From positions 1 to 24,073 of IMG/VR virus record IMGVR_UViG_2681813321_000026: a stretch of DNA of 24,073 bases, one strand, 5' to 3'. This document shows, piece after piece, positions 1,643-24,073 of this stretch. This stretch comes from a virus (taxonomy: Duplodnaviria; Heunggongvirae; Uroviricota; Caudoviricetes). Numbering within the stretch: the first letter of the stretch is position 1; the number at the start of each line of letters is the position of its first letter. The translations under genes were made by a program, and so were the position numbers. The notes beneath the pieces are model-generated. The model searched no databases and was not told the DNA's origin. It was given only the letters and a program-made list of their open reading frames with translations.

Positions 1643-2035
1643 CTAATAATTTTTTACTTTTTTGGGCAGCCAGTCGTCCATCTCCAGCCTTACACCCAGC
1701 ATCGACAGACATCCGTCAATAAATCCTTCAGCAATCTGCATCTCAATTCGTATTGCCTTTTCGCTCTTCTTTCTTGTTCTGGCAATCTGCCTTTTTGATA
1801 TGCGCAGCAGATAATGAGCTACCAGCAGCGAATACTCGTCCGGTTTTTTCTTCTTCAGGCGCGTAAGGCAGTTTTCGATGATAAGGCCGTCATCATCGCT
1901 GCAGGCCGGGCGAGGTTTAGCGGTGGATGGTAAAAGGCCTTTAAATCCAGCAGCTATCGGAGAATAGTCCACCCCGGCGTTACCACTTGCCGCCCATGCC
2001 CCCCAGCGTTCGAGAACCATCTGAATATCACGCAT
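1643..2035 (-). CDS. Q: Late-gene antiterminator Q (82/933W-type Q family)
   Basis: Protein from the ATG at 2035 begins MRDIQMVLERWGAWAASGNAGVDYSPIAAGFKGL, recognised as phage Q antiterminator family. ORF track start at 2044 is a GTG; the ATG at 2035 overlaps the upstream stop by 1 nt (coupled). TAG stop at 1645..1643. Confidence 0.75.
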   Translation of the reverse strand: MRDIQMVLERWGAWAASGNAGVDYSPIAAGFKGLLPSTAKPRPACSDDDGLIIENCLTRLKKKKPDEYSLLVAHYLLRISKRQIARTRKKSEKAIRIEMQIAEGFIDGCLSMLGVRLEMDDWLPKKVKNY

Positions 2036-3860: not shown

Positions 3861-3861
3861 C

Positions 3862-5520: not shown

Positions 5521-5793
5521 TGTGCAGCTCCCGTGCTGATGAGATAATAATTTTGTGATGTGGTTTTCATGGATTCCCCCTCACATGGCTGGTGGCCTCC
5601 CCAAAGGCTGCCAGCCTCCCTTCTGATTCAGCTCCTCTGAAAAATCACTCTTCCAGGAAGAACCCTTTTCGTTTCTCAGCGCCTGAGCGCTTTGTACTAC
5701 CTTGCTGATACGGGCGTTTTTTTAAATTGCGCCCTTAAGACAGTGATCTACTTAACCAATGGATCTCTCCTGTTGGAAAAGACCCTATTCCTG

Positions 5794-5836
5794 CCCCAAC
5801 ACCCAATCCCCCCTTACCCCCCTTACCCTCTTCCCC
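5794..5836 (-). other. C-rich (plus) / G-rich (minus) tract with six runs of 3-6 G: potential G-quadruplex motif on the minus strand
   Basis: Plus strand ccccaacacccaatccccccttaccccccttaccctcttcccc; includes tandem ccccccTTA units. Lies in the 413-bp non-coding gap between the 102-aa ORF and the helicase gene. Confidence 0.4.
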
Positions 5837-5933
5837 ATAAAAACGTACTACTTCCCTAGTACACATGAGGAGTTGGGTCAGTTGGTTGCCAACCTGAACA
5901 GGCACCTTTAAGCCTGCTTCTGTTCGGGTACCT

Positions 5934-6242
5934 TTAAACCCGAAACAGTGAGGAGCGCGATTGCGATCCAGCCAGGGGAGGTTCGGCTGTATACCCCTGT
6001 AAAGCTCTGCCCTGATTTCTTACAAACAGGCGGAGCCTTGTGTTTGCTTCGTGCCTTGCTCTGTTCTCCTTGCGGAATGAAACAGGCTCAGCGTCAAAAG
6101 TGATTTCGTATACCTCCGCATATTTCAGGGCAACCTTCCGTCTCAGTGACGGAGGCAGCCCCTGTAACTGCTGCTGAATCCACTCTTCGTCTGCCTGGCA
6201 GTACCTAGATGGCATCTCTGTCTGAACGTAATTCTGGGACAT
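5934..6242 (-). CDS. Hypothetical protein (102 aa) in the cII/replication-initiator position
   Basis: ATG at 6242 with strong SD (GGGAGGTGA); overlaps the 3' end of the cro-like gene by 38 nt in another frame. No motif recognised. Confidence 0.55.
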   Translation of the reverse strand: MSQNYVQTEMPSRYCQADEEWIQQQLQGLPPSLRRKVALKYAEVYEITFDAEPVSFRKENRARHEANTRLRLFVRNQGRALQGYTAEPPLAGSQSRSSLFRV

Positions 6243-6492
6243 ACAAGCCCTTCACCTCCCCCGTGCGCGCTAAGCTTGGATGTGGAAAAAGCTCTGATAG
6301 GTCTGGCCGAAATTCATACGCTTGGATCTTTCCGTCGACAGCTGCAACCAATAACGGCACAAATTCTGGTGAAATCTTGTTCTTGCAGTTCAACCAATCG
6401 CAGACTGTTGACTGGGCCTTTCCGCATCGCTTGGCTAAGGCTTGCTGACTTCCAAGAATCTCAATAGCTTTCTCTATGGCTTTATGTTTCAT
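6205..6492 (-). CDS. Cro-like HTH regulator (Cro/CI-type, YdaS-like), 95 aa
   Basis: Start set to ATG at 6492 (MKHKAIEKAIEILGSQQALAKRCGKAQSTVCDW, HTH) with SD AGGAGA 7 nt upstream; ORF track start at 6543 is an upstream in-frame extension. Divergent from cI. Confidence 0.75.
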   Translation of the reverse strand: MKHKAIEKAIEILGSQQALAKRCGKAQSTVCDWLNCKNKISPEFVPLLVAAVDGKIQAYEFRPDLSELFPHPSLARTGEVKGLYVPELRSDRDAI

Positions 6493-6493
6493 A

Positions 6494-6578
6494 ATCGCAT
6501 CTCCTATTGAACGCATAATAACAACAGGAAAAGCGATATTCAACGTTAAACATAGAATATTTATCGGAAAGCCGATAA
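6494..6578. promoter_or_regulatory. OR-like divergent promoter/operator region between cro-like and cI genes
   Basis: Palindromic 14-mers ATCGCatctCCtAT (6494-6507) and ATCGGaaagCCGAT (6563-6576). Candidate minus-strand cro promoter TTGAAT-N17-TATTAT (-35 at 6543..6538, -10 at 6520..6515). Candidate plus-strand -10 TAGAAT at 6553-6558 with poor -35 (PRM-like). Confidence 0.5.
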
Positions 6579-6611
6579 ACTAGCCAAGATAGAGAGGGGA
6601 GGAAAATCGCA

Positions 6612-7304
6612 ATGACATTTTCAGAACGACTTGATTTAGCTATGCGCAACGCAAAATTTACGCAAGGTAGGCTGGCCAAAGAAGTGGGTATGGCTCAGTC
6701 CAGTGTTAATCAACTACTTAACAAAGCCAACGGTTCCAGAAAAACAGTCGAAATAGCAAAAGTTTTGGGCGTTAACCCGGAATGGCTCGCATCGGGTGTT
6801 GGCCCAATGGAAATCGTGACCTCTGCAGACTCACACCAAATACGTAACATTTCTGAAGATTGGGTTACTGATTCGTATGTCGTGGATGTTTTAGACATCA
6901 GATATAGTTGCGGACCTGGTAGTTATAACTCTGATTTTCCTGATATTGTCAGATCTATAGCGATAGAACCAGGATACGCATCAAGAGTTTTTGGCGGCAG
7001 ACCAGCATCAGCAATCAAAGCAATAAACGCCCACGGCGACAGTATGAAAGGCACAATAGACCCTGAAGACTTGGTATTTGTAGATGTATCAGTTCGCACA
7101 TTTAATGGTGATGGTATATACGCCTTTACATACTCTGGAACATCGCACATCAAAAGACTTCAAAAAATCAAAGATACTCTAACGGTGATATCTGACAACC
7201 CAGCTTACAAGGATTGGGCTATCGAACCGGAAGACTTCGAACAACTTCACATTGACGGAAAAGTAATTGTCAGTTGGCCTATGACACTACACCGTTTTGC
7301 ATAA
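6612..7304 (+). CDS. cI: CI-type prophage repressor (N-terminal XRE HTH, C-terminal S24 LexA-like peptidase domain)
   Basis: 230 aa; HTH QGRLAKEVGMAQSSVNQL; S24 catalytic motifs GDSM and downstream Lys; SD GGAGG upstream of ATG. Confidence 0.9.
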   Translation: MTFSERLDLAMRNAKFTQGRLAKEVGMAQSSVNQLLNKANGSRKTVEIAKVLGVNPEWLASGVGPMEIVTSADSHQIRNISEDWVTDSYVVDVLDIRYSCGPGSYNSDFPDIVRSIAIEPGYASRVFGGRPASAIKAINAHGDSMKGTIDPEDLVFVDVSVRTFNGDGIYAFTYSGTSHIKRLQKIKDTLTVISDNPAYKDWAIEPEDFEQLHIDGKVIVSWPMTLHRFA

Positions 7305-7322
7305 GCAAAAATCATTTAACCC

Positions 7323-7348
7323 GCCCACTCTTAAGTGGGCTTTTTTTT
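7323..7348 (+). terminator. Rho-independent terminator after cI
   Basis: Perfect 7-bp stem gcccact/agtgggc with 4-nt loop ctta followed by T8. Confidence 0.8.
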
Positions 7349-7356
7349 GGGAAAAA

Positions 7357-7398
7357 ATCGATAAACCGATTGACAGGTGAAATCGGTAAACCTATTAT
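7357..7398 (+). promoter_or_regulatory. PL-like promoter with two operator sites
   Basis: TTGACA (7370-7375), 17-nt spacer, TATTAT (7393-7398). Operator-like 14-mers ATCGAtaaaCCGAT (7357-7370, overlapping -35) and ATCGGtaaaCCtAT (7382-7395, overlapping spacer/-10), same family as the OR sites. Confidence 0.7.
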
Positions 7399-7447
7399 CT
7401 TGACATAGGTATCGAACTCACCAAAGCAATTATAGAGGATGAGAAAA

Positions 7448-7858
7448 ATGTCATCGTATATGGGATTACCAACAAATCAGCACGATGCTCTTGAGAATAT
7501 TCAGCTCTTAGTAGGGACTGGTGCACTACTGTATAGCAGCAATAACCCTGAGTTAATTGAACTTGCCAGCTCCATCCTGGCTGTAACTCAAAAATATAGC
7601 CTCACCGCGTCACGTTTATGCAAACAAAATTTAGCTATTAATTCCCAGAATCGGATTCGCACCCAACGCGAAACCTGCGGCTTAACAACCGCCGAACTCG
7701 CTAGGCTGCTCGATCTCGATGAAGAAATTATCATCCAGTGGGAGAGCGGAGAGTACGAACCAACCATCAGCATGCTTATCCCTCTGGCTAATGTTCTTGG
7801 CTGTGATCCAATGTTGTTATTGACTGATGCTTATAAACAAAATCAGGAGGAAGCATAA
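7448..7858 (+). CDS. Hypothetical protein with C-terminal XRE-family HTH (first gene of PL operon)
   Basis: Start set to ATG 7448 (SD GAGGA 8 nt upstream); track start 7439 has no spacing to the SD. C-terminal HTH LTTAELARLLDLDEEIIIQWESGEYEPTISMLIPLANVLG. Confidence 0.6.
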   Translation: MSSYMGLPTNQHDALENIQLLVGTGALLYSSNNPELIELASSILAVTQKYSLTASRLCKQNLAINSQNRIRTQRETCGLTTAELARLLDLDEEIIIQWESGEYEPTISMLIPLANVLGCDPMLLLTDAYKQNQEEA

Positions 7859-7859
7859 G

Positions 7860-8051
7860 ATGAAAATGTTCAAAGGCCTTACCAACGAACCGGAGACAAC
7901 TTTTCATCACATTGCCGTACTGCTTGAAGCGGGGTTAATCATTTCGGCTTCCGGTGATGAAGAATGTGATGAACTTTCGGATGATATCTTTTTACTGGCA
8001 CAACAATACGCCAGAAGCGCATGCGATGCATTTAAGGAGCAAAGAACATGA
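7860..8051 (+). CDS. Small acidic hypothetical protein (63 aa)
   Basis: ATG 7860 preceded by AGGAGG (9-nt spacing); track ORF 7827 is an in-frame upstream extension overlapping the previous gene. Confidence 0.55.
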   Translation: MKMFKGLTNEPETTFHHIAVLLEAGLIISASGDEECDELSDDIFLLAQQYARSACDAFKEQRT

Positions 8052-8239
8052 AAACTCCATTAAATATTCTTGAGGAAGTGGCAGCACAAATAAAAGAGAA
8101 TACATCAATGCTTGAATTTATATTTAAGAATTCGCCCGACTCAGGAGAGACAGACGATTATTTATGTTGCCTCATTCGCTCCATGAATAAAACCTGTGAA
8201 ATGGCTTACGCGTATATCGACACACTGCGCAACGAATAA
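8048..8239 (+). CDS. Small acidic hypothetical protein (63 aa)
   Basis: ATG overlaps stop of previous gene (ATGA coupling). Confidence 0.55.
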   Translation: MKTPLNILEEVAAQIKENTSMLEFIFKNSPDSGETDDYLCCLIRSMNKTCEMAYAYIDTLRNE

Positions 8240-8423
8240 AGAAAACTCAATAAACAATCACCCATAAAAACATAACGGTCTCTGGTCGGGAATTTCCACA
8301 ACCTGAAAATGGTGGTGATGCATGAAAAACAGAAGTGCTTATAAAACCGCATTATTAATGGCTAATGCAGGATACTGGTCAGTTGCAATACTGTTTCTCA
8401 GGAAAGCATACGGGAAATAACAA

Positions 8424-8783
8424 ATGACACATGAACCCATTAATACATATCGTCGCCGTATAGCTGTTGCGGCACTCCATCGAATAAAACGTAAAACAGG
8501 TGGTAATCTGCTTATTGTTGACCTTCCTGATGGGAACATTACGACCATAGAAATAACTGAACAGTTTATAAACCAGTTGCTGTTACGCTTCGAAGGTATT
8601 ACCCGTGGTGAATTGGGCCGGGTGGAGGGTGAAACCGAAATCCACACTGCATACCAGAATGCTATCGGGATTAATCAACATACTGAATACCTGACTGAAA
8701 CCGGAAAGTTAATTATAGACAACCTTTTTCAAGAGATTATTGATTACGCGAAAGAAAAATATATCAGCGGAGGAATTAACTGA
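8424..8783 (+). CDS. Hypothetical protein (119 aa)
   Basis: ORF with ATG start; stop overlaps start of next gene. No motif recognised. Confidence 0.5.
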   Translation: MTHEPINTYRRRIAVAALHRIKRKTGGNLLIVDLPDGNITTIEITEQFINQLLLRFEGITRGELGRVEGETEIHTAYQNAIGINQHTEYLTETGKLIIDNLFQEIIDYAKEKYISGGIN

Positions 8784-8998
8784 TGGCTAATTTATCCCCT
8801 GTATCTGTTGTGCACGAAAAAGTGCAGATCGTTATGACAATTGAAAATGGCCAAGTCACAGGTGTCTGCAAAGTCCGCGATGGCGAGCTGATTGCCAGCA
8901 TGGATACATTCATACGGCTGGCAGAAAGAGCGGGGTATCAGATAACAGCACCTGCTCAGGAGGAAACCGGTGGCATTAACAGCAACACGCATTCCTGA
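8783..8998 (+). CDS. Hypothetical protein (71 aa)
   Basis: ATG 8783 with GGAGGA 8 nt upstream, overlapping stop of previous gene. Confidence 0.55.
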   Translation: MANLSPVSVVHEKVQIVMTIENGQVTGVCKVRDGELIASMDTFIRLAERAGYQITAPAQEETGGINSNTHS

Positions 8999-9184
8999 GC
9001 GGATCCACCGGCAGGCATTGCAGGTCCTGTTGTTGTACCGATGCCGACGGATATTTCCGCATCGGATACAGCGCACCGGATATCTCAGTCTGAAGGTTAA
9101 CCGTCGCTGGCGGCTGTTATCGAAAGACGACGGCCGGAACTGGGAAGTAATGAGTCATGAACGTTATTCGGGAGAAATAAAGAA

Positions 9185-9577
9185 ATGATCGACAACCGCA
9201 CCGCCAGCACCATTGACCAGGCATTACAGAAACATGATACACCCGTCGGCCCGTTATTTTTTGTAACACGCCACGGAAGAACAAAAAAATGCCTCACCCG
9301 AAAAACGGCAATTCGTTACCTGGCATTCTTTATGACCACCCGCGCTTTTGAACGTTCAGGATTCCGACAACGCTATCCTGACAAGCGTTTTATCTTCAAC
9401 AGGAATGAGATATGGAAACGTGGAGAATCAACCACAGAGTATACCCGCGCACACCAGCGAACAATCAGACGACTGCGCAGACTCATCGCCAGGAAACAGT
9501 ATACAGAAAAATGGTTCAGAAAATATGACACATGGAGCGCCGGATATTACGAACTGATGGCAACAAAACCATTCTGA
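9185..9577 (+). CDS. Hypothetical basic protein (130 aa, Arg/Lys-rich C-terminus)
   Basis: ATG 9185 with GGGAGA upstream. No motif recognised. Confidence 0.5.
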   Translation: MIDNRTASTIDQALQKHDTPVGPLFFVTRHGRTKKCLTRKTAIRYLAFFMTTRAFERSGFRQRYPDKRFIFNRNEIWKRGESTTEYTRAHQRTIRRLRRLIARKQYTEKWFRKYDTWSAGYYELMATKPF

Positions 9578-9637
9578 CGTAAACGAAATTAACCATGACG
9601 CAATTAAATAAGGCAAGCCGAATACATCAGGAGGACC

Positions 9638-9826
9638 ATGAACATTTATTTCAGAATAGTTATATCACTGGCAATTATCACATGTATTTACGGATTAATC
9701 GTTCCGGCCCTCATATCAATGAAGGATACGGTAGCAGTGATTTCTGGCTTTGCTCTGGCGTGTCTGACCCCGCCCTGCATTTATGCCATTTATAAGGGTC
9801 TTTCTTTTTCTAAGGATAAAAGATGA
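9638..9826 (+). CDS. Small membrane protein (62 aa, two predicted TM helices)
   Basis: AGGAGGA upstream of ATG; two hydrophobic stretches; stop overlaps start of SPFH gene (ATGA). Confidence 0.55.
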   Translation: MNIYFRIVISLAIITCIYGLIVPALISMKDTVAVISGFALACLTPPCIYAIYKGLSFSKDKR

Positions 9827-10137
9827 AAAAATTACTTTTTGCTTTAGCCCTTGTTCTGCCGACCATTGGCCTTGTCGGTTGCGATCGCGTTGAGCCTGGT
9901 AATGTGGGCATCAAAGTAAACAAACTGGGCGACGATAAAGGCGTCGGTGAAGTGGTCGGTGTTGGGCGCTACTGGACGGGATGGAACACTGAGGTTTACA
10001 TCTTCCCGACCTTTAAGCAGATGAAGACCTACGATGATCCATTCAGTTTCCAGATGAGTGACGGTACAACCATCGGCTATCACATCGGCGTGGCCTACAA
10101 AGTTGATCCATCCAAAGTTACCACAGTCTTTCAGACC

Positions 10138-10167
<30 letters not shown>
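9823..10167 (+). pseudogene. Truncated copy of SPFH/band-7 lipoprotein gene (first 105 codons, then unrelated sequence after repeat boundary at 10137)
   Basis: Identical to the first 105 codons of the 275-aa gene at 19791-20618, then diverges and terminates after 9 foreign codons. Confidence 0.75.
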
Positions 10168-13550
<3,383 letters not shown>

Positions 13551-13576
<26 letters not shown>

Positions 13577-14096
13577 TCAGCAACCCCGGTATCAGTTCAT
13601 CCAGCGCGGCTGCTTTGTTCATGGCTTTGATGATATCCCGTTTCAGGAAATCAACATGTCGGTTTTCCAGTTCCGGAAAACGCCGCTGCACCGACAGGGG
13701 GAGCCCGTCGAGAATACTGGCAATTTCACCTGCGATCCGCGACAACACGAAAGTACAGAATGCGGTTTCCACCACTTCAGCGGAGTCTCTGGCATTCTTC
13801 AGTTCCTGTGCGTCGGCCTGCGCACGCGTAAGTCGATGGCGTTCGTACTCAATAGTTCCTGGCTGGAGATCTGCCTCGCTGGCCTGCCGCAGTTCTTCAA
13901 CCTCCCGGCGCAGCTTTTCGTTCTCAATTTCAGCATCCCTTTCGGCATACCATTTTATGACGGCGGCAGAGTCATAAAGCACCTCATTACCCTTGCCACC
14001 GCCTCGCAGAACGGGCATTCCCTGTTCCTGCCAGTTCTGAATGGTACGGATACTCGCACCGAAAATGTCAGCCAGCTGCTTTTTGTTGACTTCCAT
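13551..14096 (-). CDS. nu1: Terminase small subunit (lambda Nu1, 181 aa)
   Basis: Translation MEVNKKQLADIFGASIRTIQNWQEQGMPVLRGGGKGNEVLYDSAAVIKWYAERDAE... recognised as lambda Nu1; overlaps A start as in lambda. Confidence 0.95.
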
Positions 14097-14283
14097 TGTT
14101 CATTCCACGGCCAAAAACAGAGAAAGGAAACGACAAAGGCCCAAAAGTTCGTTTTCAGCACCTGTCGTTTCCTTTCTTTTCAGGGGGTATTTTAAATAAA
14201 AACATTAAGTTACGACGAAGAAGAACGGAAACGCCTTAAACCGGAAAATTTTCATAAATAGCGAAAACCCGCGAGGTCGCCGC

Positions 14284-14295
14284 CCCGTAGCCTGC
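14284..14295 (-). other. cosN cohesive-end site (12-nt GGGCGGCGACCT on minus strand); cosB lies between here and Nu1
   Basis: Plus strand aggtcgccgccc at 14284-14295 is the reverse complement of the lambda left cohesive end; the following 190 bp toward Nu1 matches the lambda left end from memory with a few substitutions. Confidence 0.85.
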
Positions 14296-14522
14296 CGGAT
14301 CGCCGGAAAGGACCCAATAAATGATAATAATTATCATTTATATAAATACCATCACACATCCCACGTACACCATAAAACCACGACAAATAATCAATTTTGT
14401 CCAAGTCATGCATTAATTGATCTGTGTCAACTTAACGTAAAGACATCTTAAGACAATACAAATCAGCAGCACTGAACACGGAAAAACACAATGTCATCAA
14501 AAAATAAAGCTTCCCAAACCAG

Positions 14523-14663
14523 ATGATTAATCAAATCCATATTGCCCTTGAACGTAAGGGATCGGGTAATTTTTCGGCATGGGTTATTGAAGCCTGCAGG
14601 AGAAGGCTGGCAACAGATGCAAAGCACCTGCGCCCGGCCAGCATGAAAAATAACGAGAAATGA
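14523..14663 (+). CDS. Small hypothetical protein (46 aa) in the cos-proximal right-end region
   Basis: ORF MINQIHIALERKGSGNFSAWVIEACRRRL...; resembles from memory the last small ORF before cos in lambda. An upstream ATG at 14491 is out of frame. Below track size cutoff. Confidence 0.3.
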   Translation: MINQIHIALERKGSGNFSAWVIEACRRRLATDAKHLRPASMKNNEK

Positions 14664-14795
14664 ACGTTCGGTTACAGGAACCGGTAGCTACTGTCTTCTA
14701 ACAATATTTCATCTTCATATCCGGCGAAACAAGACTTTACCCTGCAGGGATGTACTGAATAGCAACAGAGTGATAATTAACTTCTGATAAAATAA

Positions 14796-15122
14796 TCAGG
14801 GTGCTGAAGGACTAAAGATAAATGTTTTCTTCACGCCTTTACGCGGCTTGTCCTTCTCAAATCGCCATTTTGCCATCGCCTTTACAACCTGCTCATCAAA
14901 CAGATGGTGCGGCTCTGAACGGATAAACTCAATTCGGGTGACAGTACCATCAGCACCAATATCAAACTTCACATCAACCCGTCCCTTTATATAATTTGCC
15001 GCGGCATAGGCCGGATATTGTGGTAATGCCTTAACCAACTGTCGAGGCATATCTGTTTTATGTTGCGTACAGCCCATAACCAAAGAAGACAACAAAATAA
15101 TTAACGGAAGATTTCTTTTCAT
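14796..15122 (-). CDS. Lipoprotein consisting of a TonB C-terminal-like domain (about 108 aa)
   Basis: Signal peptide MKRNLPLIILLSSLVMGC with lipobox-like VMGC; mature region PQYPAYAAANYIKGRVDVKFDIGADGTVTRIEFIRSEPHHLFDEQVVKAMAKWRFEKDKP aligns closely with E. coli TonB C-terminal domain (PQYPARAQALRIEGQVKVKFDV...AMRRWRYEPGKP) from memory. Alternative upstream ATG at 15137 has no SD. Confidence 0.75.
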   Translation of the reverse strand: MKRNLPLIILLSSLVMGCTQHKTDMPRQLVKALPQYPAYAAANYIKGRVDVKFDIGADGTVTRIEFIRSEPHHLFDEQVVKAMAKWRFEKDKPRKGVKKTFIFSPSAP

Positions 15123-15138
15123 TTTTATTCCCGGCATA

Positions 15139-15158
15139 GATAAGAATAAGTCTTATTC
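15139..15158. promoter_or_regulatory. AT-rich perfect palindrome (GAATAAG-T-CTTATTC preceded by GATAA) overlapping the putative promoter of the TonB-like gene
   Basis: 7-1-7 perfect inverted repeat at 15144-15158; overlaps a minus-strand TAGAAT -10-like hexamer; partial resemblance to Fur-box GATAAT hexamers. Confidence 0.3.
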
Positions 15159-15761
15159 TAACAATGCAGCCCTGTCGGTCATCAATCCTCTGCTTAATGG
15201 CAATGACAATTATCCGACTTAAATCACAAATCAGACACATGACATAACAGAGTTTGCGAGGTAACACATCGTCCGGTTTCTTCCACCATCGCACCGGACC
15301 AGCGACCATGAGGGGACAACGCCGCGCTCCGTTTACGCGGTAAACCCCGGTGTGTATCGTTTTTGATTATCCCCGCACACTCTCGCAGAGGAGTCTCCCT
15401 GTCGGGCTGCGGTCTCTGTTAATGCAGGAATACGGCGACAATACCGCGCATGGATAATAAGGTCGCTCAACACACTGGCTGTAATTCAGCGGATACCATT
15501 CGGCATTTATCAGTATTCATCACACACTCAACGGTGAATTCTTCATGCGTGGCATTCACTTCATATGTTCGTGAATAACATTCAGTGCATTTACCTCTGA
15601 ACACCTCTTCAATCACTCTTCCAGGAAGAACCCTTTTCGTTTCTCAGCGCCTGAGCGCTTTGTACTACCTTGCTGATACGGGCGTTTTTTTAAATTGCGC
15701 CCTTAAGACAGTGATCTACTTAACCAATGGATCTCTCCTGTTGGAAAAGACCCTATTCCTG

Positions 15762-15804
15762 CCCCAACACCCAATCCCCCCTTACCCCCCTTACCCTCTT
15801 CCCC
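15762..15804 (-). other. Second copy of the C-rich/G-rich potential G-quadruplex tract
   Basis: Identical to 5794-5836. Confidence 0.4.
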
Positions 15805-15901
15805 ATAAAAACGTACTACTTCCCTAGTACACATGAGGAGTTGGGTCAGTTGGTTGCCAACCTGAACAGGCACCTTTAAGCCTGCTTCTGTTCGGGTACC
15901 T

Positions 15902-16210
15902 TTAAACCCGAAACAGTGAGGAGCGCGATTGCGATCCAGCCAGGGGAGGTTCGGCTGTATACCCCTGTAAAGCTCTGCCCTGATTTCTTACAAACAGGCG
16001 GAGCCTTGTGTTTGCTTCGTGCCTTGCTCTGTTCTCCTTGCGGAATGAAACAGGCTCAGCGTCAAAAGTGATTTCGTATACCTCCGCATATTTCAGGGCA
16101 ACCTTCCGTCTCAGTGACGGAGGCAGCCCCTGTAACTGCTGCTGAATCCACTCTTCGTCTGCCTGGCAGTACCTAGATGGCATCTCTGTCTGAACGTAAT
16201 TCTGGGACAT
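15902..16210 (-). CDS. Hypothetical protein (102 aa), copy 2
   Basis: Identical to 5934-6242. Confidence 0.55.
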   Translation of the reverse strand: MSQNYVQTEMPSRYCQADEEWIQQQLQGLPPSLRRKVALKYAEVYEITFDAEPVSFRKENRARHEANTRLRLFVRNQGRALQGYTAEPPLAGSQSRSSLFRV

Positions 16211-16460
16211 ACAAGCCCTTCACCTCCCCCGTGCGCGCTAAGCTTGGATGTGGAAAAAGCTCTGATAGGTCTGGCCGAAATTCATACGCTTGGATCTTTC
16301 CGTCGACAGCTGCAACCAATAACGGCACAAATTCTGGTGAAATCTTGTTCTTGCAGTTCAACCAATCGCAGACTGTTGACTGGGCCTTTCCGCATCGCTT
16401 GGCTAAGGCTTGCTGACTTCCAAGAATCTCAATAGCTTTCTCTATGGCTTTATGTTTCAT
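16173..16460 (-). CDS. Cro-like HTH regulator, copy 2
   Basis: Identical to 6205-6492. Confidence 0.75.
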   Translation of the reverse strand: MKHKAIEKAIEILGSQQALAKRCGKAQSTVCDWLNCKNKISPEFVPLLVAAVDGKIQAYEFRPDLSELFPHPSLARTGEVKGLYVPELRSDRDAI

Positions 16461-16461
16461 A

Positions 16462-16546
16462 ATCGCATCTCCTATTGAACGCATAATAACAACAGGAAAA
16501 GCGATATTCAACGTTAAACATAGAATATTTATCGGAAAGCCGATAA
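16462..16546. promoter_or_regulatory. OR-like promoter/operator region, copy 2
   Basis: Identical to 6494-6578. Confidence 0.5.
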
Positions 16547-16579
16547 ACTAGCCAAGATAGAGAGGGGAGGAAAATCGCA

Positions 16580-17272
16580 ATGACATTTTCAGAACGACTT
16601 GATTTAGCTATGCGCAACGCAAAATTTACGCAAGGTAGGCTGGCCAAAGAAGTGGGTATGGCTCAGTCCAGTGTTAATCAACTACTTAACAAAGCCAACG
16701 GTTCCAGAAAAACAGTCGAAATAGCAAAAGTTTTGGGCGTTAACCCGGAATGGCTCGCATCGGGTGTTGGCCCAATGGAAATCGTGACCTCTGCAGACTC
16801 ACACCAAATACGTAACATTTCTGAAGATTGGGTTACTGATTCGTATGTCGTGGATGTTTTAGACATCAGATATAGTTGCGGACCTGGTAGTTATAACTCT
16901 GATTTTCCTGATATTGTCAGATCTATAGCGATAGAACCAGGATACGCATCAAGAGTTTTTGGCGGCAGACCAGCATCAGCAATCAAAGCAATAAACGCCC
17001 ACGGCGACAGTATGAAAGGCACAATAGACCCTGAAGACTTGGTATTTGTAGATGTATCAGTTCGCACATTTAATGGTGATGGTATATACGCCTTTACATA
17101 CTCTGGAACATCGCACATCAAAAGACTTCAAAAAATCAAAGATACTCTAACGGTGATATCTGACAACCCAGCTTACAAGGATTGGGCTATCGAACCGGAA
17201 GACTTCGAACAACTTCACATTGACGGAAAAGTAATTGTCAGTTGGCCTATGACACTACACCGTTTTGCATAA
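16580..17272 (+). CDS. cI: CI-type prophage repressor, copy 2
   Basis: Identical to 6612-7304. Confidence 0.9.
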   Translation: MTFSERLDLAMRNAKFTQGRLAKEVGMAQSSVNQLLNKANGSRKTVEIAKVLGVNPEWLASGVGPMEIVTSADSHQIRNISEDWVTDSYVVDVLDIRYSCGPGSYNSDFPDIVRSIAIEPGYASRVFGGRPASAIKAINAHGDSMKGTIDPEDLVFVDVSVRTFNGDGIYAFTYSGTSHIKRLQKIKDTLTVISDNPAYKDWAIEPEDFEQLHIDGKVIVSWPMTLHRFA

Positions 17273-17290
17273 GCAAAAATCATTTAACCC

Positions 17291-17316
17291 GCCCACTCTT
17301 AAGTGGGCTTTTTTTT
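17291..17316 (+). terminator. Rho-independent terminator after cI, copy 2
   Basis: Identical to 7323-7348. Confidence 0.8.
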
Positions 17317-17324
17317 GGGAAAAA

Positions 17325-17366
17325 ATCGATAAACCGATTGACAGGTGAAATCGGTAAACCTATTAT
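17325..17366 (+). promoter_or_regulatory. PL-like promoter with operators, copy 2
   Basis: Identical to 7357-7398. Confidence 0.7.
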
Positions 17367-17415
17367 CTTGACATAGGTATCGAACTCACCAAAGCAATTA
17401 TAGAGGATGAGAAAA

Positions 17416-17826
17416 ATGTCATCGTATATGGGATTACCAACAAATCAGCACGATGCTCTTGAGAATATTCAGCTCTTAGTAGGGACTGGTGCACTACTGT
17501 ATAGCAGCAATAACCCTGAGTTAATTGAACTTGCCAGCTCCATCCTGGCTGTAACTCAAAAATATAGCCTCACCGCGTCACGTTTATGCAAACAAAATTT
17601 AGCTATTAATTCCCAGAATCGGATTCGCACCCAACGCGAAACCTGCGGCTTAACAACCGCCGAACTCGCTAGGCTGCTCGATCTCGATGAAGAAATTATC
17701 ATCCAGTGGGAGAGCGGAGAGTACGAACCAACCATCAGCATGCTTATCCCTCTGGCTAATGTTCTTGGCTGTGATCCAATGTTGTTATTGACTGATGCTT
17801 ATAAACAAAATCAGGAGGAAGCATAA
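17416..17826 (+). CDS. Hypothetical protein with C-terminal XRE HTH, copy 2
   Basis: Identical to 7448-7858. Confidence 0.6.
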   Translation: MSSYMGLPTNQHDALENIQLLVGTGALLYSSNNPELIELASSILAVTQKYSLTASRLCKQNLAINSQNRIRTQRETCGLTTAELARLLDLDEEIIIQWESGEYEPTISMLIPLANVLGCDPMLLLTDAYKQNQEEA

Positions 17827-17827
17827 G

Positions 17828-18019
17828 ATGAAAATGTTCAAAGGCCTTACCAACGAACCGGAGACAACTTTTCATCACATTGCCGTACTGCTTGAAGCGG
17901 GGTTAATCATTTCGGCTTCCGGTGATGAAGAATGTGATGAACTTTCGGATGATATCTTTTTACTGGCACAACAATACGCCAGAAGCGCATGCGATGCATT
18001 TAAGGAGCAAAGAACATGA
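17828..18019 (+). CDS. Small acidic hypothetical protein (63 aa), copy 2
   Basis: Identical to 7860-8051. Confidence 0.55.
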   Translation: MKMFKGLTNEPETTFHHIAVLLEAGLIISASGDEECDELSDDIFLLAQQYARSACDAFKEQRT

Positions 18020-18207
18020 AAACTCCATTAAATATTCTTGAGGAAGTGGCAGCACAAATAAAAGAGAATACATCAATGCTTGAATTTATATTTAAGAATT
18101 CGCCCGACTCAGGAGAGACAGACGATTATTTATGTTGCCTCATTCGCTCCATGAATAAAACCTGTGAAATGGCTTACGCGTATATCGACACACTGCGCAA
18201 CGAATAA
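18016..18207 (+). CDS. Small acidic hypothetical protein (63 aa), copy 2
   Basis: Identical to 8048-8239. Confidence 0.55.
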   Translation: MKTPLNILEEVAAQIKENTSMLEFIFKNSPDSGETDDYLCCLIRSMNKTCEMAYAYIDTLRNE

Positions 18208-18391
18208 AGAAAACTCAATAAACAATCACCCATAAAAACATAACGGTCTCTGGTCGGGAATTTCCACAACCTGAAAATGGTGGTGATGCATGAAAAACAG
18301 AAGTGCTTATAAAACCGCATTATTAATGGCTAATGCAGGATACTGGTCAGTTGCAATACTGTTTCTCAGGAAAGCATACGGGAAATAACAA

Positions 18392-18751
18392 ATGACACAT
18401 GAACCCATTAATACATATCGTCGCCGTATAGCTGTTGCGGCACTCCATCGAATAAAACGTAAAACAGGTGGTAATCTGCTTATTGTTGACCTTCCTGATG
18501 GGAACATTACGACCATAGAAATAACTGAACAGTTTATAAACCAGTTGCTGTTACGCTTCGAAGGTATTACCCGTGGTGAATTGGGCCGGGTGGAGGGTGA
18601 AACCGAAATCCACACTGCATACCAGAATGCTATCGGGATTAATCAACATACTGAATACCTGACTGAAACCGGAAAGTTAATTATAGACAACCTTTTTCAA
18701 GAGATTATTGATTACGCGAAAGAAAAATATATCAGCGGAGGAATTAACTGA
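18392..18751 (+). CDS. Hypothetical protein (119 aa), copy 2
   Basis: Identical to 8424-8783. Confidence 0.5.
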   Translation: MTHEPINTYRRRIAVAALHRIKRKTGGNLLIVDLPDGNITTIEITEQFINQLLLRFEGITRGELGRVEGETEIHTAYQNAIGINQHTEYLTETGKLIIDNLFQEIIDYAKEKYISGGIN

Positions 18752-18966
18752 TGGCTAATTTATCCCCTGTATCTGTTGTGCACGAAAAAGTGCAGATCGT
18801 TATGACAATTGAAAATGGCCAAGTCACAGGTGTCTGCAAAGTCCGCGATGGCGAGCTGATTGCCAGCATGGATACATTCATACGGCTGGCAGAAAGAGCG
18901 GGGTATCAGATAACAGCACCTGCTCAGGAGGAAACCGGTGGCATTAACAGCAACACGCATTCCTGA
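18751..18966 (+). CDS. Hypothetical protein (71 aa), copy 2
   Basis: Identical to 8783-8998. Confidence 0.55.
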   Translation: MANLSPVSVVHEKVQIVMTIENGQVTGVCKVRDGELIASMDTFIRLAERAGYQITAPAQEETGGINSNTHS

Positions 18967-19152
18967 GCGGATCCACCGGCAGGCATTGCAGGTCCTGTTG
19001 TTGTACCGATGCCGACGGATATTTCCGCATCGGATACAGCGCACCGGATATCTCAGTCTGAAGGTTAACCGTCGCTGGCGGCTGTTATCGAAAGACGACG
19101 GCCGGAACTGGGAAGTAATGAGTCATGAACGTTATTCGGGAGAAATAAAGAA

Positions 19153-19545
19153 ATGATCGACAACCGCACCGCCAGCACCATTGACCAGGCATTACAGAAA
19201 CATGATACACCCGTCGGCCCGTTATTTTTTGTAACACGCCACGGAAGAACAAAAAAATGCCTCACCCGAAAAACGGCAATTCGTTACCTGGCATTCTTTA
19301 TGACCACCCGCGCTTTTGAACGTTCAGGATTCCGACAACGCTATCCTGACAAGCGTTTTATCTTCAACAGGAATGAGATATGGAAACGTGGAGAATCAAC
19401 CACAGAGTATACCCGCGCACACCAGCGAACAATCAGACGACTGCGCAGACTCATCGCCAGGAAACAGTATACAGAAAAATGGTTCAGAAAATATGACACA
19501 TGGAGCGCCGGATATTACGAACTGATGGCAACAAAACCATTCTGA
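19153..19545 (+). CDS. Hypothetical basic protein (130 aa), copy 2
   Basis: Identical to 9185-9577. Confidence 0.5.
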   Translation: MIDNRTASTIDQALQKHDTPVGPLFFVTRHGRTKKCLTRKTAIRYLAFFMTTRAFERSGFRQRYPDKRFIFNRNEIWKRGESTTEYTRAHQRTIRRLRRLIARKQYTEKWFRKYDTWSAGYYELMATKPF

Positions 19546-19605
19546 CGTAAACGAAATTAACCATGACGCAATTAAATAAGGCAAGCCGAATACATCAGGA
19601 GGACC

Positions 19606-19794
19606 ATGAACATTTATTTCAGAATAGTTATATCACTGGCAATTATCACATGTATTTACGGATTAATCGTTCCGGCCCTCATATCAATGAAGGATACGGT
19701 AGCAGTGATTTCTGGCTTTGCTCTGGCGTGTCTGACCCCGCCCTGCATTTATGCCATTTATAAGGGTCTTTCTTTTTCTAAGGATAAAAGATGA
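19606..19794 (+). CDS. Small two-TM membrane protein (62 aa), copy 2
   Basis: Identical to 9638-9826. Confidence 0.55.
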   Translation: MNIYFRIVISLAIITCIYGLIVPALISMKDTVAVISGFALACLTPPCIYAIYKGLSFSKDKR

Positions 19795-20618
19795 AAAAAT
19801 TACTTTTTGCTTTAGCCCTTGTTCTGCCGACCATTGGCCTTGTCGGTTGCGATCGCGTTGAGCCTGGTAATGTGGGCATCAAAGTAAACAAACTGGGCGA
19901 CGATAAAGGCGTCGGTGAAGTGGTCGGTGTTGGGCGCTACTGGACGGGATGGAACACTGAGGTTTACATCTTCCCGACCTTTAAGCAGATGAAGACCTAC
20001 GATGATCCATTCAGTTTCCAGATGAGTGACGGTACAACCATCGGCTATCACATCGGCGTGGCCTACAAAGTTGATCCATCCAAAGTTACCACAGTCTTTC
20101 AGACCTACCGCAAAGGCGTGGACGACATTACCGACACCGACCTGCGCCAGAAGATAGCCGACGCACTCAACCGACTGGCCAGCAAAATGACCACCGACAA
20201 ATTTATCGACGGCGGCAAGTCTGAGCTGCTGGATGCAGCTCTTAAAGACATTCAGGAAGAAATGACGCCCATCGGTATTCAGGTAATGAGCCTCTCATAT
20301 GTGGGTAAGCCGGAGTACCCACCTACTGTTATCGACAGCATTAATGCCAAAGTCACGGCGAACCAGAAAACCCTGCAACGCGAGCAGGAAGTAAAACAGC
20401 GCGAAGCGGAAGCCAACATGTTGCGCGCGGAAGCTGCCGGACAGGCAGATGCGATTCGCACAAAAGCCCAGGCCGAAGCCGATGCTATTCGTTTACGCGG
20501 TGAAGCTCTGCGCCAGAACCCCGGTGTTATGGAGCTGGAAGCCATCAACAAGTGGAACGGTACACTGCCGCAATACATGACCAGCGGTGCCAACACACCA
20601 TTTATTCAGGTTAAGTAA
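19791..20618 (+). CDS. SPFH/band-7 (HflC/stomatin-like) domain lipoprotein, 275 aa
   Basis: Lipoprotein signal MKKLLFALALVLPTIGLVGC (lipobox LVGC); SPFH-like core and C-terminal Ala/Glu/Gln/Arg-rich coiled-coil segment (REQEVKQREAEANMLRAEAAGQADAIRTKAQAEADAIRLRGEAL) typical of HflC/QmcA-type proteins; SD AAGGA upstream. Confidence 0.8.
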   Translation: MKKLLFALALVLPTIGLVGCDRVEPGNVGIKVNKLGDDKGVGEVVGVGRYWTGWNTEVYIFPTFKQMKTYDDPFSFQMSDGTTIGYHIGVAYKVDPSKVTTVFQTYRKGVDDITDTDLRQKIADALNRLASKMTTDKFIDGGKSELLDAALKDIQEEMTPIGIQVMSLSYVGKPEYPPTVIDSINAKVTANQKTLQREQEVKQREAEANMLRAEAAGQADAIRTKAQAEADAIRLRGEALRQNPGVMELEAINKWNGTLPQYMTSGANTPFIQVK

Positions 20619-20661
20619 TACATATGCCCGGTATTACACGCCGGGCTGTCTGGAGATAAAA

Positions 20662-21411
20662 ATGAATATTGTAACCATCAACAACAAACAGTTTCCGGTA
20701 ATCGAATATCGCGGTCAGCGTGTTGTGACATTTGCAATAATTGATGACGTCCACCAGCGCCCGGAAGGTACCGCCCGTGCTGCGTTTAACCGCAACCGTT
20801 CTCACTTTATCGAAGGGGTGGATTTTCTTGAAATGACTGCGGACGTAATACGTACGGAGTCACTTTCTGATGCCTTTGCCGCGCGAACTGCCAAAGGGAT
20901 CATTCTTTTCGAGTCTGGTTACCTGATGTTGACGAAGCCTTTTAACGATGCTCTTGCATGGCAGGTTCAGCGCGAACTGGTTAACAGCTATTTCCGAACT
21001 CACGCGCCGCTGACGGAAATGGAGATGATCGCTGCAATGGCCGCCGATGCCGTTCGCCAGCAGAAGCGCCTGAGTCATGTTGAAGAGAAGATCGAAACGG
21101 TCACCAAAGCTGTGGAGAACATCAAACGCGGCACAATGCGCACCGGATATGTCGGTTACCGCCAGGTGGTAGCCAAAAGCGGAATGAGTGACGCCAAGTG
21201 TCGGAATCTGGTCAACGCCTACCACATCCCTACCGACACGCACGAATTTATGACTCCGGACGGTCTGTTGTCTCGCAGGGCTGTCGTCGAGCTTGAGACA
21301 TTTATGGCGGCGTTCCACCAAATGATGTCAGAGGCTGAACCACGCGGCACACGCTGGTATCACCCGAAGATGGGGCTTTTTCAGGTAATCGGATGGGAGG
21401 ATAAAGCATGA
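20662..21411 (+). CDS. Phage antirepressor-like protein with N-terminal ORF6N/KilA-N-type domain (249 aa)
   Basis: Start set to ATG 20662 (SD GGAG 6 nt upstream; track start 20587 is an upstream extension overlapping the SPFH gene end). N-terminus MNIVTINNKQFPVIEYRGQRVVTFAIIDDVHQRPEGTARAAFNRNRSHFIEGVDFLE resembles ORF6N antirepressor domains. Confidence 0.6.
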   Translation: MNIVTINNKQFPVIEYRGQRVVTFAIIDDVHQRPEGTARAAFNRNRSHFIEGVDFLEMTADVIRTESLSDAFAARTAKGIILFESGYLMLTKPFNDALAWQVQRELVNSYFRTHAPLTEMEMIAAMAADAVRQQKRLSHVEEKIETVTKAVENIKRGTMRTGYVGYRQVVAKSGMSDAKCRNLVNAYHIPTDTHEFMTPDGLLSRRAVVELETFMAAFHQMMSEAEPRGTRWYHPKMGLFQVIGWEDKA

Positions 21412-21976
21412 TCATCCAGTCAAAACTTATTCGCGCCGCTCTGGTGTGCGCTGCTAAAAACGACGTTCGTTATTACCTGAACGGTCTTCACATCACGCCA
21501 AAACATATTGAGGCAACCAATGGTTTCGTAGCACTGCGCATGACTCACGGCATCCGGACGAAGAAAAACATCATTGTCCAGTTCGAAGGTGGCGTCCCGG
21601 CCAAAGCCGAAACGACAGAGCTGATTTTTAGTAAAGAGCCGATCCTGTTCATCGCGACCAGTTTCAGCGCCGGCTGTCCATTACCGGCATTAAATTGGTG
21701 GACGGTTGTTTTCCGGATTTGGAACGCATCATTCCGAAAAAATTTGACCTCTGTACACACCCGGTGATCCAGGCGGGTTACCTGAGTTATCCAGAGAAGA
21801 TGTTTGGTCGTGAGCGTAAATTTATTCCCGTCCAGTTACGTTCCTCCGGTGACGGGCAAGCGGTCAGAATTCAGTTTGATTCCATCATCAACTCAATGTA
21901 TGGCAATCCTGAATTTGTTGTGATGCCTTGTCGTGATCATGGCGATTTCAATGTGGCTCAGGAGCATCCGGAATGA
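21408..21976 (+). pseudogene. DnaN (beta sliding clamp) domain II-III-like gene interrupted by a -1 frameshift near 21672-21676
   Basis: Frame-0 ORF 21408-21767 begins MIIQSKLIRAALVCAAKNDVRYYLNGLHI...ATNGFVALR (compare E. coli DnaN RLIEATQFSMAHQDVRYYLNGM...ATDGHRLAV). Frame-2 ORF open from 21635 to 21976 reads ...IKLVDGCFPDLERIIPKK...VVMPCRD (compare DnaN SKLVDGRFPDYRRVLPK...VVMPMRL). No SD or ATG for the second frame; ATG 21408 overlaps the antirepressor stop. Confidence 0.5.
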
Positions 21977-22011
21977 AAATCGAATACCAGGACGCCGCAG
22001 GAGGTGAATCA

Positions 22012-22095
22012 ATGAGCTGGCCTGATGCAATCGTAACTCTGGGGGTGGTATTCGCAGTAGCGTTTGTTGTGTTCTCAATTTGTCGATGGGGATAA
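22012..22095 (+). CDS. Small hydrophobic peptide (27 aa; 40 aa if started at coupled ATG 21973)
   Basis: Strong SD AGGAGGT 7 nt upstream of ATG 22012; translation MSWPDAIVTLGVVFAVAFVVFSICRWG is a single TM helix. An in-frame ATG at 21973 overlaps the stop of the upstream gene. Confidence 0.35.
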   Translation: MSWPDAIVTLGVVFAVAFVVFSICRWG

Positions 22096-22099
22096 CCAC

Positions 22100-22342
22100 A
22101 TGTTCGCTTTGATTCAACGCGGTCAGATATACACGGACAGAGCCGGATACCCCGTGGTGATTACTCGCATCACTGAGCACTCAGTGTTCTTTCGACGGAT
22201 GGACGGACGATCCGGGCGGGTACGCATTGGTGAGTTAAACTGCCTGTTCGAACATATTGACCACCAGGAGTACCGCAAAATTCTCGCGGACACTGAGCAG
22301 GAAAAGCACCTGAAAAAATTACGAGCCATAAAAAGGAAGTAA
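22100..22342 (+). CDS. Hypothetical protein (80 aa)
   Basis: ATG 22100 with GGGGA 7 nt upstream; track start 22064 is a TTG upstream extension. Confidence 0.5.
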   Translation: MFALIQRGQIYTDRAGYPVVITRITEHSVFFRRMDGRSGRVRIGELNCLFEHIDHQEYRKILADTEQEKHLKKLRAIKRK

Positions 22343-22345
22343 AGA

Positions 22346-22480
22346 ATGAATAAAGCATTTGAACGATGGGTCCACCAGCGTTACGGCAATCGCTATGACC
22401 TGACGCGAGATGTTGACGGCTTCTACTGTCGTGAAGTTGTGAAGCGAATGTTTGAAGTGTGGTGCCACTGCCGTGGATGA
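22346..22480 (+). CDS. Hypothetical small Cys-containing protein (44 aa)
   Basis: ATG 22346 with AAGGAAG upstream; MNKAFERWVHQRYGNRYDLTRDVDGFYCREVVKRMFEVWCHCRG; below track size cutoff. Confidence 0.35.
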   Translation: MNKAFERWVHQRYGNRYDLTRDVDGFYCREVVKRMFEVWCHCRG

Positions 22481-22498
22481 AAATTTTATGAGGTTGGC

Positions 22499-22753
22499 AT
22501 GCAGACAATCATCTATCAGATAACCCCCAGCAAATGGTGTACGGAGAGAGTCCTCATTGCATCAACAGGGCTAAAGCCTGGCACCATTGAGCGGGCAAGA
22601 AGAAAGTCATGGATGCAGGGAAAAGAATACCGCCATTACGCTGTAGAAGGTGATCCGGGGCACTACAGTGAATGCCTGTACAACATCGAAGAAATTATGC
22701 GATGGATCGAAAACCAGAAACAACCAGGTGCCAAAAATGCAAGTTCCGGTTAA
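22499..22753 (+). CDS. Excisionase-like protein (84 aa)
   Basis: Immediately upstream of the integrase gene, same strand; motif pattern W..E.L...TGLKPGTIERARRKSWMQGKEYRH resembles prophage excisionase-like (DUF1233-type) proteins. Confidence 0.55.
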   Translation: MQTIIYQITPSKWCTERVLIASTGLKPGTIERARRKSWMQGKEYRHYAVEGDPGHYSECLYNIEEIMRWIENQKQPGAKNASSG

Positions 22754-22786
22754 CCTGTTAATGCTCCTGGACGTCTGGGAGGTTTA

Positions 22787-24073
22787 ATGAGTAACGCATC
22801 ATACCCGACAGGCGTTGAAAACCATGGAGGATCACTCCGTATATGGTTTCACTATAATGGCAAACGTGTCAGAGAAAACCTCGGTGTTCCTGACACAGCC
22901 AAAAACCGGAAGATCGCTGGTGAACTTCGCACTTCCGTTTGTTTTGCAATCAGAATGGGGAGTTTCGACTACGCCGCGCAGTTCCCTAATTCCCCTAACC
23001 TGAAACACTTTGGTCTGGGAAAAAGAGAGATAACCGTTAAGGCACTTTCGGAAAAATGGTTGGACCTTAAGAAAATTGAGATTTGTGCGAATGCACTTAA
23101 TCGTTACCAGTCAGTAATTAAAAACATGTTGCCTATGTTGGGTGAGAAAAAACTGGTTTCATCCATAACAAAAGAGGATTTACTTTTCGCAAGGAGAGAT
23201 TTGTTGACCGGTTACCAAAAGCTTTCTAATGGAAAGATTTCTTCCATAAAAGGGCGCTCAGTGGTCACAGTAAACTACTATATGACAACCATAGCTGGAA
23301 TGTTTCAATTTGCAACAGATAATGGTTATACCTCAGGAAACCCATTTAACGGTCTGGCACCCTTAAAAAAGTCCAAGGTAAAACCAGATCCTCTCACCCG
23401 TGACGAATTTATTCGTTTTATTGAAGCTTGCCGTCATCAACAAACAAAAAACCTGTGGATTCTCGCTGTATACACGGGTATTCGTCACGGGGAGCTGGTA
23501 TCGCTGGCATGGGAAGATATAGATCTTAAAGCAAGGACTATAACCATCCGTAGGAATTATACAAAACTTGGCGAATTCACTCCACCAAAAACCGATGCTG
23601 GCACCGGAAGGACAATTCATCTGGTTCAACCAGCTATTGATGCTCTTAAAAGTCAGGCGGAAATGACCATGCTTGGAAAGCAACATTCTGTAGAGGTAAA
23701 GCAGAGGGAATATGGGAGAAGTACTGTGCATAAATGCACTTTTGTTTTTAGTCCTCAGGTAATAAAACAGCGGCAGTTTTCCGGACCGCACTATAAGGTT
23801 GACTCCATCAGGGAGTCATGGACAAGTATCTTAAAACGCGCAGGTCTGAGACACAGAAAATCGTACCAATCCAGGCATACTTATGCATGCTGGTCACTTG
23901 CCGCTGGAGCTAATCCTAGTTTTATCGCAAGCCAGATGGGCCACACAAACGCACAAATGGTATTCAATGTTTACGGAGCATGGATGAAAGACAACAATCA
24001 CGAACAGATAGAACTCCTTAACAAAAGACTATCTGAAAGTGTCCCATGTATGCCCCATAAGAAAGCTGGGTAA
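22787..24073 (+). CDS. int: Tyrosine-type site-specific integrase (428 aa)
   Basis: SD GGGAGG upstream; C-terminal catalytic region with RHGEL, SRHTYACW, HTNAQMVFNVYGAW (catalytic Tyr) typical of tyrosine recombinases. Last prophage gene before the expected attachment site beyond the window. Confidence 0.9.
   Translation: MSNASYPTGVENHGGSLRIWFHYNGKRVRENLGVPDTAKNRKIAGELRTSVCFAIRMGSFDYAAQFPNSPNLKHFGLGKREITVKALSEKWLDLKKIEICANALNRYQSVIKNMLPMLGEKKLVSSITKEDLLFARRDLLTGYQKLSNGKISSIKGRSVVTVNYYMTTIAGMFQFATDNGYTSGNPFNGLAPLKKSKVKPDPLTRDEFIRFIEACRHQQTKNLWILAVYTGIRHGELVSLAWEDIDLKARTITIRRNYTKLGEFTPPKTDAGTGRTIHLVQPAIDALKSQAEMTMLGKQHSVEVKQREYGRSTVHKCTFVFSPQVIKQRQFSGPHYKVDSIRESWTSILKRAGLRHRKSYQSRHTYACWSLAAGANPSFIASQMGHTNAQMVFNVYGAWMKDNNHEQIELLNKRLSESVPCMPHKKAG

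Follow-up and report, generated by a model that had tools for sequence, protein, structure and literature searches.

A probable illegitimate deletion joins the cos-proximal region to the immunity region of a lambdoid Escherichia coli prophage

The stretch of DNA analysed here, referred to as the window (24,073 nucleotides), contains a junction, J1, at which the cos-proximal packaging block of a lambdoid E. coli prophage is joined directly to an immunity region. J1 is very probably a genuine deletion junction that arose by non-homologous (illegitimate) recombination inside the prophage. One break lies inside the gene for a 74-amino acid (aa) hypothetical protein, which normally follows Rz at the end of the late region nearest to cos, and the other in the 413-bp spacer between a 102-aa early gene and a DEAD-box helicase gene, 122 bp before the helicase start. 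The ends overlap by 2 bp (AA), and about 9.5 kb is missing, presumably dropped from the integrated prophage in a single event. The resulting product would retain cI, the Cro-like gene, the leftward early genes, int, cos, and the packaging genes. Judging from its gene content, it would be unable to replicate, to antiterminate late transcription, or to lyse, and it would be passed on vertically as a defective, immunity-conferring prophage. The flanks of J1 are collinear with non-adjacent parts of intact relatives, the genes in between are gone, a gene is truncated at the join, and the junction is absent from these relatives yet heritable.

Organization of the window

The window consists of five blocks in the order X-R1-Y-R2-Z (Table 1). 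The repeat copies R1 and R2 are in direct orientation with an offset of 9,968 bp and are 100% identical across 4,495 bp. On the left, this identity ends abruptly at 5642/15610, and the flanks to the left of 5643/15611 are unrelated; comparison of the copies places the start of the identity exactly at 5643/15611, where an earlier note on this DNA had put it. In the following, the Y/R2 join (15610/15611) is called J1 and the R1/Y join (10137/10139) J2. These two joins are the novel ones. X/R and R/Z are native adjacencies, since E. coli E110019 carries a prophage that is collinear with both X-R and R-Z. The window begins at the start of the deposited draft E. coli contig CYBF01000001.1 (GCA_001285025.1; 280,924 bp). 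Its position 1 is the contig end and lies within a gene encoding a SASA-family esterase, so that the lysis and structural genes expected after X cannot be seen.

Besides the genes listed in Table 1, R contains genes for a helix-turn-helix (HTH) protein and several small proteins as well as the beginning (~105 codons) of an SPFH/Band_7 gene. A 72-aa ParE_like gene was called in one R copy and not in the other (9185-9403 versus 19153-19371 region) despite identical DNA, which is a gene-calling inconsistency. In Y, an 83-aa ORF is listed after the 74-aa gene remnant and before the TonB_C gene, and the Nu1-A-W region (11448-14096) has 98.9% identity to lambda.

Reading along the minus strand, the order in copy 2 is YdaS/Cro-like gene, 102-aa gene, J1, TonB_C gene, DUF3950 gene, cosN, Nu1, A, W, and portal gene. 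The gene table thus bears out the earlier description of this copy, according to which the 102-aa gene is followed by a TonB-like gene and cos; it shows no replication, Q, or lysis genes in between, in agreement with the claim that copy 2 is not a complete prophage on its own. The replication and Q genes that adjoin R1 (1643-5520, minus strand) are part of what the R2 side is missing. As the Cro-like, 102-aa, TonB_C, Nu1, A, W, and portal genes all share the minus strand, the packaging genes in copy 2 would have a single obvious route to transcription, namely read-through from the early rightward promoter.

Table 1. Positions of blocks, genes, and junction features in the window
Feature	Position	Strand	Remarks
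Block X	1-5642		replication/Q module, native left neighbour of R1
Antiterminator Q gene	1643-2038	-	in X; start of SASA esterase gene lies beyond
285-aa gene	2035-2892	-	in X
Toprim primase gene	2892-3860	-	in X
DEAD-box helicase gene	3862-5520	-	in X
Twin of the CCTCTGAA 8-mer	5634-5641		2 nt outside copy 1
Repeat copy R1	5643-10137		joined natively to X on the left
Block Y	10138-15610		cos-proximal/packaging block between R1 and R2
Portal gene	10139-11451	-	cut after codon ~438; from parental comparison
gpW gene	11448-11654	-	terminase region
Terminase A gene	11651-13576	-	terminase region
Nu1 gene	13551-14096	-	terminase region
cosN	14274-14285	-	identical to the cohesive-end sequence of lambda, GGGCGGCGACCT
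DUF3950 small gene, 46 aa	14523-14663	+	in Y
TonB C-terminal domain 'moron' gene, 108 aa	14796-15122	-	TonB_C, E = 2.7e-15; native place between Nu1 and lysis genes
3' remnant of 74-aa hypothetical gene (47 codons)	15467-15612	-	from translation comparison; no Pfam family
CCTCTGAA 8-mer, Y side	15594-15601	+	10 nt from J1
J1 crossover	15610-15612		from three-way comparison with both parental contexts and the repeat boundary
Repeat copy R2	15611-20105		spacer through codon ~105 of SPFH/Band_7 gene; native continuation into Z
Spacer remnant, 291 bp of native 413 bp	15611-15901		between 102-aa gene and J1
102-aa early gene	15902-16210	-	downstream of Cro-like gene; no Pfam family
Cro-like regulator gene, 95 aa	16173-16460	-	Pfam YdaS_toxin
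cI-like LexA-family repressor gene, 230 aa	16580-17272	+	Pfam Peptidase_S24; divergent from Cro-like gene
Block Z	20106-24073		rest of SPFH gene, ORF6N gene, onward to an integrase gene

Native arrangement in intact relatives

The closest intact relative is the E110019 prophage, which is collinear with positions 1448-10137 of the window at 99.86% and with positions 15611-22148 at 99.85%. The collinearity breaks near ~22148 because an IS3-family element is inserted in E110019 at the matching region (L001 28379-29592). The segments on the two sides of J1, 15272-15612 and 15611-22148, map to the same strand of this prophage and lie 9.5 kb apart.

The prophages of EC9682, 2013C-4974 (Stx1a), and 2013C-3264 have the order portal, W, A, Nu1, cos, (DUF3950, TonB_C), and 74-aa gene, followed by the Rz/lysis genes, Q, the replication genes, cro, cI, and int, in the same orientation as in the window. 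The native place of the 74-aa gene (WP_000736096.1) is directly downstream of Rz, between Nu1/cos and the lysis protein gene. On the other side, the 102-aa gene is followed after 413 bp by the helicase, primase, 285-aa, and Q genes in all 25 long contigs that were read, which carry the identical 102-aa protein (10 of these places are listed, the others being grouped as similar). The fixed 413-bp spacing persists across different repressor/Cro types with repressors of 230, 218, and 229 aa (loci L007-L016); this constant distance despite differing repressors suggests that the 102-aa gene moves together with the replication module rather than the immunity module. A 57-mer spanning the native X/R join is present in 26 IMG/VR contigs. 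These comparisons show the left edge of copy 1 to be the native arrangement.

The spacer itself (15611-15933 and also 5643-5933) contains short direct repeats, among them CCCCTTACC, which occurs twice at about 15778-15796, and a 21-nt repeat pair at 15862 and 15888. Regions of Yersinia phage YP3, Escherichia phage Fostie, and Cronobacter phage ENT39118 match the spacer at 87-92% identity, and a role in regulation or as an origin is conceivable for it.

Structure of the J1 junction

At J1, sequence specific to the Y parent ends with base 15610, the AA at 15611-15612 is common to both parents, and sequence specific to the R parent begins with base 15613. With a slash marking the join, the Y parent reads ...CACCTCTTCAA/GCAGAAC (longer stretch ...TTTACCTCTGAACACCTCTTCAA/GCAGAACACGG) and the R parent ...CTCTGAAAAA/TCACTCTT (longer stretch ...CAGCTCCTCTGAAAAA/TCACTCTTCCAGG), while the window across J1 reads ...CACCTCTTCAATCACTCTT (longer stretch ...TTTACCTCTGAACACCTCTTCAATCACTCTTCCAGG). 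If one mismatch is allowed, the patch common to both parents lengthens to AAnCA; this explains why the Y parent is matched by BLAST as far as 15615.

The break on the Y side lies inside the 74-aa gene, which has lost its first 27 codons including the start codon and has 47 codons left. On the R side, the break lies in the 413-bp spacer, and the 122 bp upstream of the helicase ATG are deleted. The missing block amounts to 9,456 bp in E110019. It comprises the 5' end of the 74-aa gene and the genes for the Rz/lysis protein, endolysin (lysozyme), YdfR, holin, SASA esterase, DUF3927, TerB, Q, the 285-aa protein, the Toprim primase, and the helicase. The breakpoints, the cut gene, and the lost modules are observed; the enzymology of the join and the defective phenotype are inferred, the latter from gene content.

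The R side supplies an in-frame GTG exactly at J1, by which a 49-aa ORF is predicted from the remnant of the 74-aa gene (15467-15616, minus strand). Scans for promoters and terminators and for short repeats around J1 yielded counts at or below the shuffle expectation.

A transposon or site-specific origin was considered and rejected: the window contains no inverted repeats of at least 40 nt and no transposase gene, and J1 and J2 have no common core.

Short shared words near the breakpoints

The earlier note had pointed to a displaced cctctga heptamer at 5634-5640 and 15594-15600 and had suggested a microhomology-mediated join. The heptamer is present at both places and even extends to an 8-mer, CCTCTGAA, but a join by microhomology at this word is not supported. 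The 8-mer is 8 nt out of register, and a crossover within it would yield ...CCTCTGAAAAATCAC..., which is absent at J1. The in-register microhomology is limited to the 2 bp AA, which is at chance level, as about 16% of random junctions reach at least 2 bp in a random-junction model calculation. An identical run at the crossover, typically of at least 4 bp, as expected of a microhomology-mediated join, is not found.

It is conceivable that short homology guided the join in a less direct manner, in that the 8-mer and CT-rich patches (CCTCT, CTCTTC) aligned the two sites and imprecise processing or template switching shifted the join by a few bases. In favour of this is the 8-mer, of which there are just two copies in the whole window on either strand versus 0.69 expected, both within 20 nt of a parental breakpoint. 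The probability that a random pair of window flanks shares a word of at least 8 nt is 0.003, 0.011, and 0.021 for flanks of 20, 30, and 40 nt, respectively, values that are post hoc since both the flank size and the motif were picked after viewing the data. Further displaced words, CTCTTC, CCTCT, and AGAAC, are common to both parents near J1. Against this, the register and the predicted product speak as described above, and guidance by short homology is regarded as rather unlikely. A purely homology-independent join leaves the nominally improbable occurrence of the 8-mer beside both parental breakpoints unexplained.

Distribution of J1

The region 15300-15900 was searched in three collections, of complete E. 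coli genomes (5,426), phage records (50,697), and plasmids (72,556). None of them contained a place covering at least 80% of it, and matches end at J1 from either side. A 35-mer across J1 had no matches in metagenome contigs and species-representative genome contigs. In IMG/VR it had a single, base-for-base match in IMGVR_UViG_2537561991_000013. This contig corresponds to positions 10139-19472 of the window with 2 SNPs (14318, 16265) and 99.98% identity. At the site of J2, it runs into the native 3' end of the portal gene and a protease gene, which are 99.7% identical to the 2013C-3264 prophage. A J1-bearing element with an intact portal gene and without replication, Q, and lysis genes thus exists on its own as a prophage.

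The terminal 54-mer of this contig has at least 120 unrelated lambda-like matches, and the locus (L006) was not lengthened by it. A 58-mer just past the other end matched 40 contigs, none of which belongs to genome 2537561991; the contig therefore probably stops at the equivalent of window position 19472. A look-up of further J1 carriers by means of the terminase A protein returned 19,021 blocks and was too common to be informative, the contexts shown all being native. A literature search under the assembly, contig, and IMG identifiers found nothing.

Because the same uninterrupted junction occurs in two assemblies that differ elsewhere, J1 is regarded as a real, inherited scar, with support at the level of two assemblies and not of reads. 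Both assemblies may derive from isolates that are close relatives within a single lineage, in which case they would represent a single event and no recurrence. Grounds for suspecting an assembly or chimeric-read artefact are the draft status of the source assembly, the contig end at position 1, and an N-bridged join that lies 5.5 kb away from J1. J1 itself is unbroken sequence, however, and is identical in the independent IMG/VR contig with its 2 SNPs and its different downstream structure, which makes an artefact highly improbable.

Even less credible is that some lineage of lambdoid phages has the Y/R adjacency natively, as a mosaic module boundary, which could be proposed from the high mosaicism of lambdoid genomes and from the one IMG/VR viral contig with this arrangement: with 99.98% identity to the window, that contig is not an unrelated phage, J1 cuts a conserved gene and removes all replication, Q, and lysis functions, and nothing spans it in the phage, E. 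coli, and plasmid sets, whereas the native X/R join recurs in IMG/VR.

A deletion scar remains the preferred reading of J1, for which the earlier note had proposed a rearrangement scar. The adjacency is absent from the E. coli, phage, and plasmid sets, and a gene is cut at the join. Among the related prophages compared, the 102-aa gene is always followed by the helicase module at 413 bp, and the sole other carrier of J1 is nearly identical to the window. Unrelated complete lambdoid phages with the 15300-15900 arrangement, which according to that note would speak for a native boundary, were not found.

The J2 join and the tandem layout

The window and CYBF01000001.1 differ in a single position among 21,451 bases compared, 10138, which is A in the window and N in the contig. 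This base lies exactly at J2, as R1 ends at 10137 and the portal homology begins at 10139. J2 is thus a product of scaffolding or gap filling, with no sequenced DNA behind it, and the tandem R1-Y-R2 layout therefore rests partly on scaffolding. The 535-aa ORF at 9844-11451 (minus strand), which was called as portal gene (Phage_portal_2), is a chimera: the native portal protein has 533 aa, and the last 97 residues of the ORF (from ~439) are read off the SPFH gene in antisense across the N-bridged join.

The odds that the tandem layout X-R1-Y-R2-Z is real are judged to be about even. If it is, it would have arisen by a duplication-type join at J2 plus the J1 deletion, or from a tandem double lysogen trimmed by two deletions, and a 9,968-bp block (truncated portal gene to cos-proximal genes plus a second immunity region) would lie within an otherwise complete prophage. 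The deposited contig has the segments in this order, and a scaffolder normally needs read-pair links to set contig ends side by side; two prophages with the same immunity would, moreover, be easiest to explain as neighbours. The copies are direct and 100% identical; such identity would result from repeat collapse or gap filling anyway, and the join base is N, so that no sequence crosses the R1/Y join. The related IMG/VR assembly passes through the J2 site into native portal sequence. The J2 adjacency was seen nowhere else, with 0 matches in IMG/VR when 0-12 free bases were permitted and none in complete E. coli genomes. Finally, the window begins at a contig end, and the rest of the prophage is out of view.

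If the tandem layout is real, J1, being common to two assemblies, would be older than J2, which would be private to GCA_001285025.1. The locus would then be recombinationally unstable, since an exchange between the two repeat copies would give back an X-R-Z prophage of intact appearance. Dating of the R duplication by the SNP at 16265 (and 6297), which is A in both R copies and G in E110019 and IMGVR_UViG_2537561991_000013, was rejected, as collapsed or gap-filled repeats are identical by construction.

It is very doubtful that the 9,968-bp R+Y unit (immunity segment plus cos-Nu1-A-W and the truncated portal gene) is a separate circle or an amplifiable tandem unit instead of being simply inserted in the chromosome. 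In the assembly graph, this would look no different, namely like a loop on R. cos is part of the unit, as are 291 bp of the repeat-containing spacer that lies upstream of the helicase gene. If this spacer holds an origin, the unit could replicate in trans by means of the helicase and primase of the neighbouring prophage; in that case, it could be packaged as 4- or 5-mers (39.9 or 49.8 kb), like a cosmid or lambda dv.

Comparison with known systems

J1 is an ordinary deletion scar, produced by a known kind of event, and will not surprise a specialist. It adds one more case of lambdoid prophage decay by non-homologous deletion with retention of immunity, with a base-level breakpoint that is common to two assemblies. 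The scientific weight of this case is small, and its practical value concerns annotation and assembly quality: the 535-aa "portal" is chimeric, the apparent tandem duplication hangs on a single N, and a prophage predictor would probably merge or mis-score the R1-Y-R2 region.

If the scaffold order is right, the window resembles tandem duplications of lambda, and likewise tandem double lysogens, in having direct, identical immunity segments 9,968 bp apart and one novel join. It differs from them in that J2 is represented by an N and in that the duplicated unit already contains the J1 deletion and is not a simple head-to-tail copy of the native arrangement.

Illegitimate deletions of lambda include those of the b2 or nin5 type, and lambda gal and bio transducing phages are formed with little or no homology. 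The J1 deletion is similar to such deletions and to abnormal excision in that non-adjacent sites are joined with 0-2 bp of in-register homology and without a transposase or a site-specific core. The classical lambda deletions, however, were selected as viable phages in which essential genes are spared, whereas the J1 deletion removes essential genes and would be able to persist only as a prophage.

Cryptic or defective lambdoid prophages of E. coli include DLP12, Rac, and Qin of strain K-12 and the defective Sp prophages of O157 Sakai. As in these elements, essential modules have been lost by internal deletion while some functional genes are kept (in the J1 element immunity, int, cos, the packaging genes, and the TonB_C moron), and inheritance is chromosomal. 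In contrast to the cryptic prophages of K-12, which are much more eroded, the J1 deletion looks recent, with one block missing and flanks that are 99-100% identical to intact relatives.
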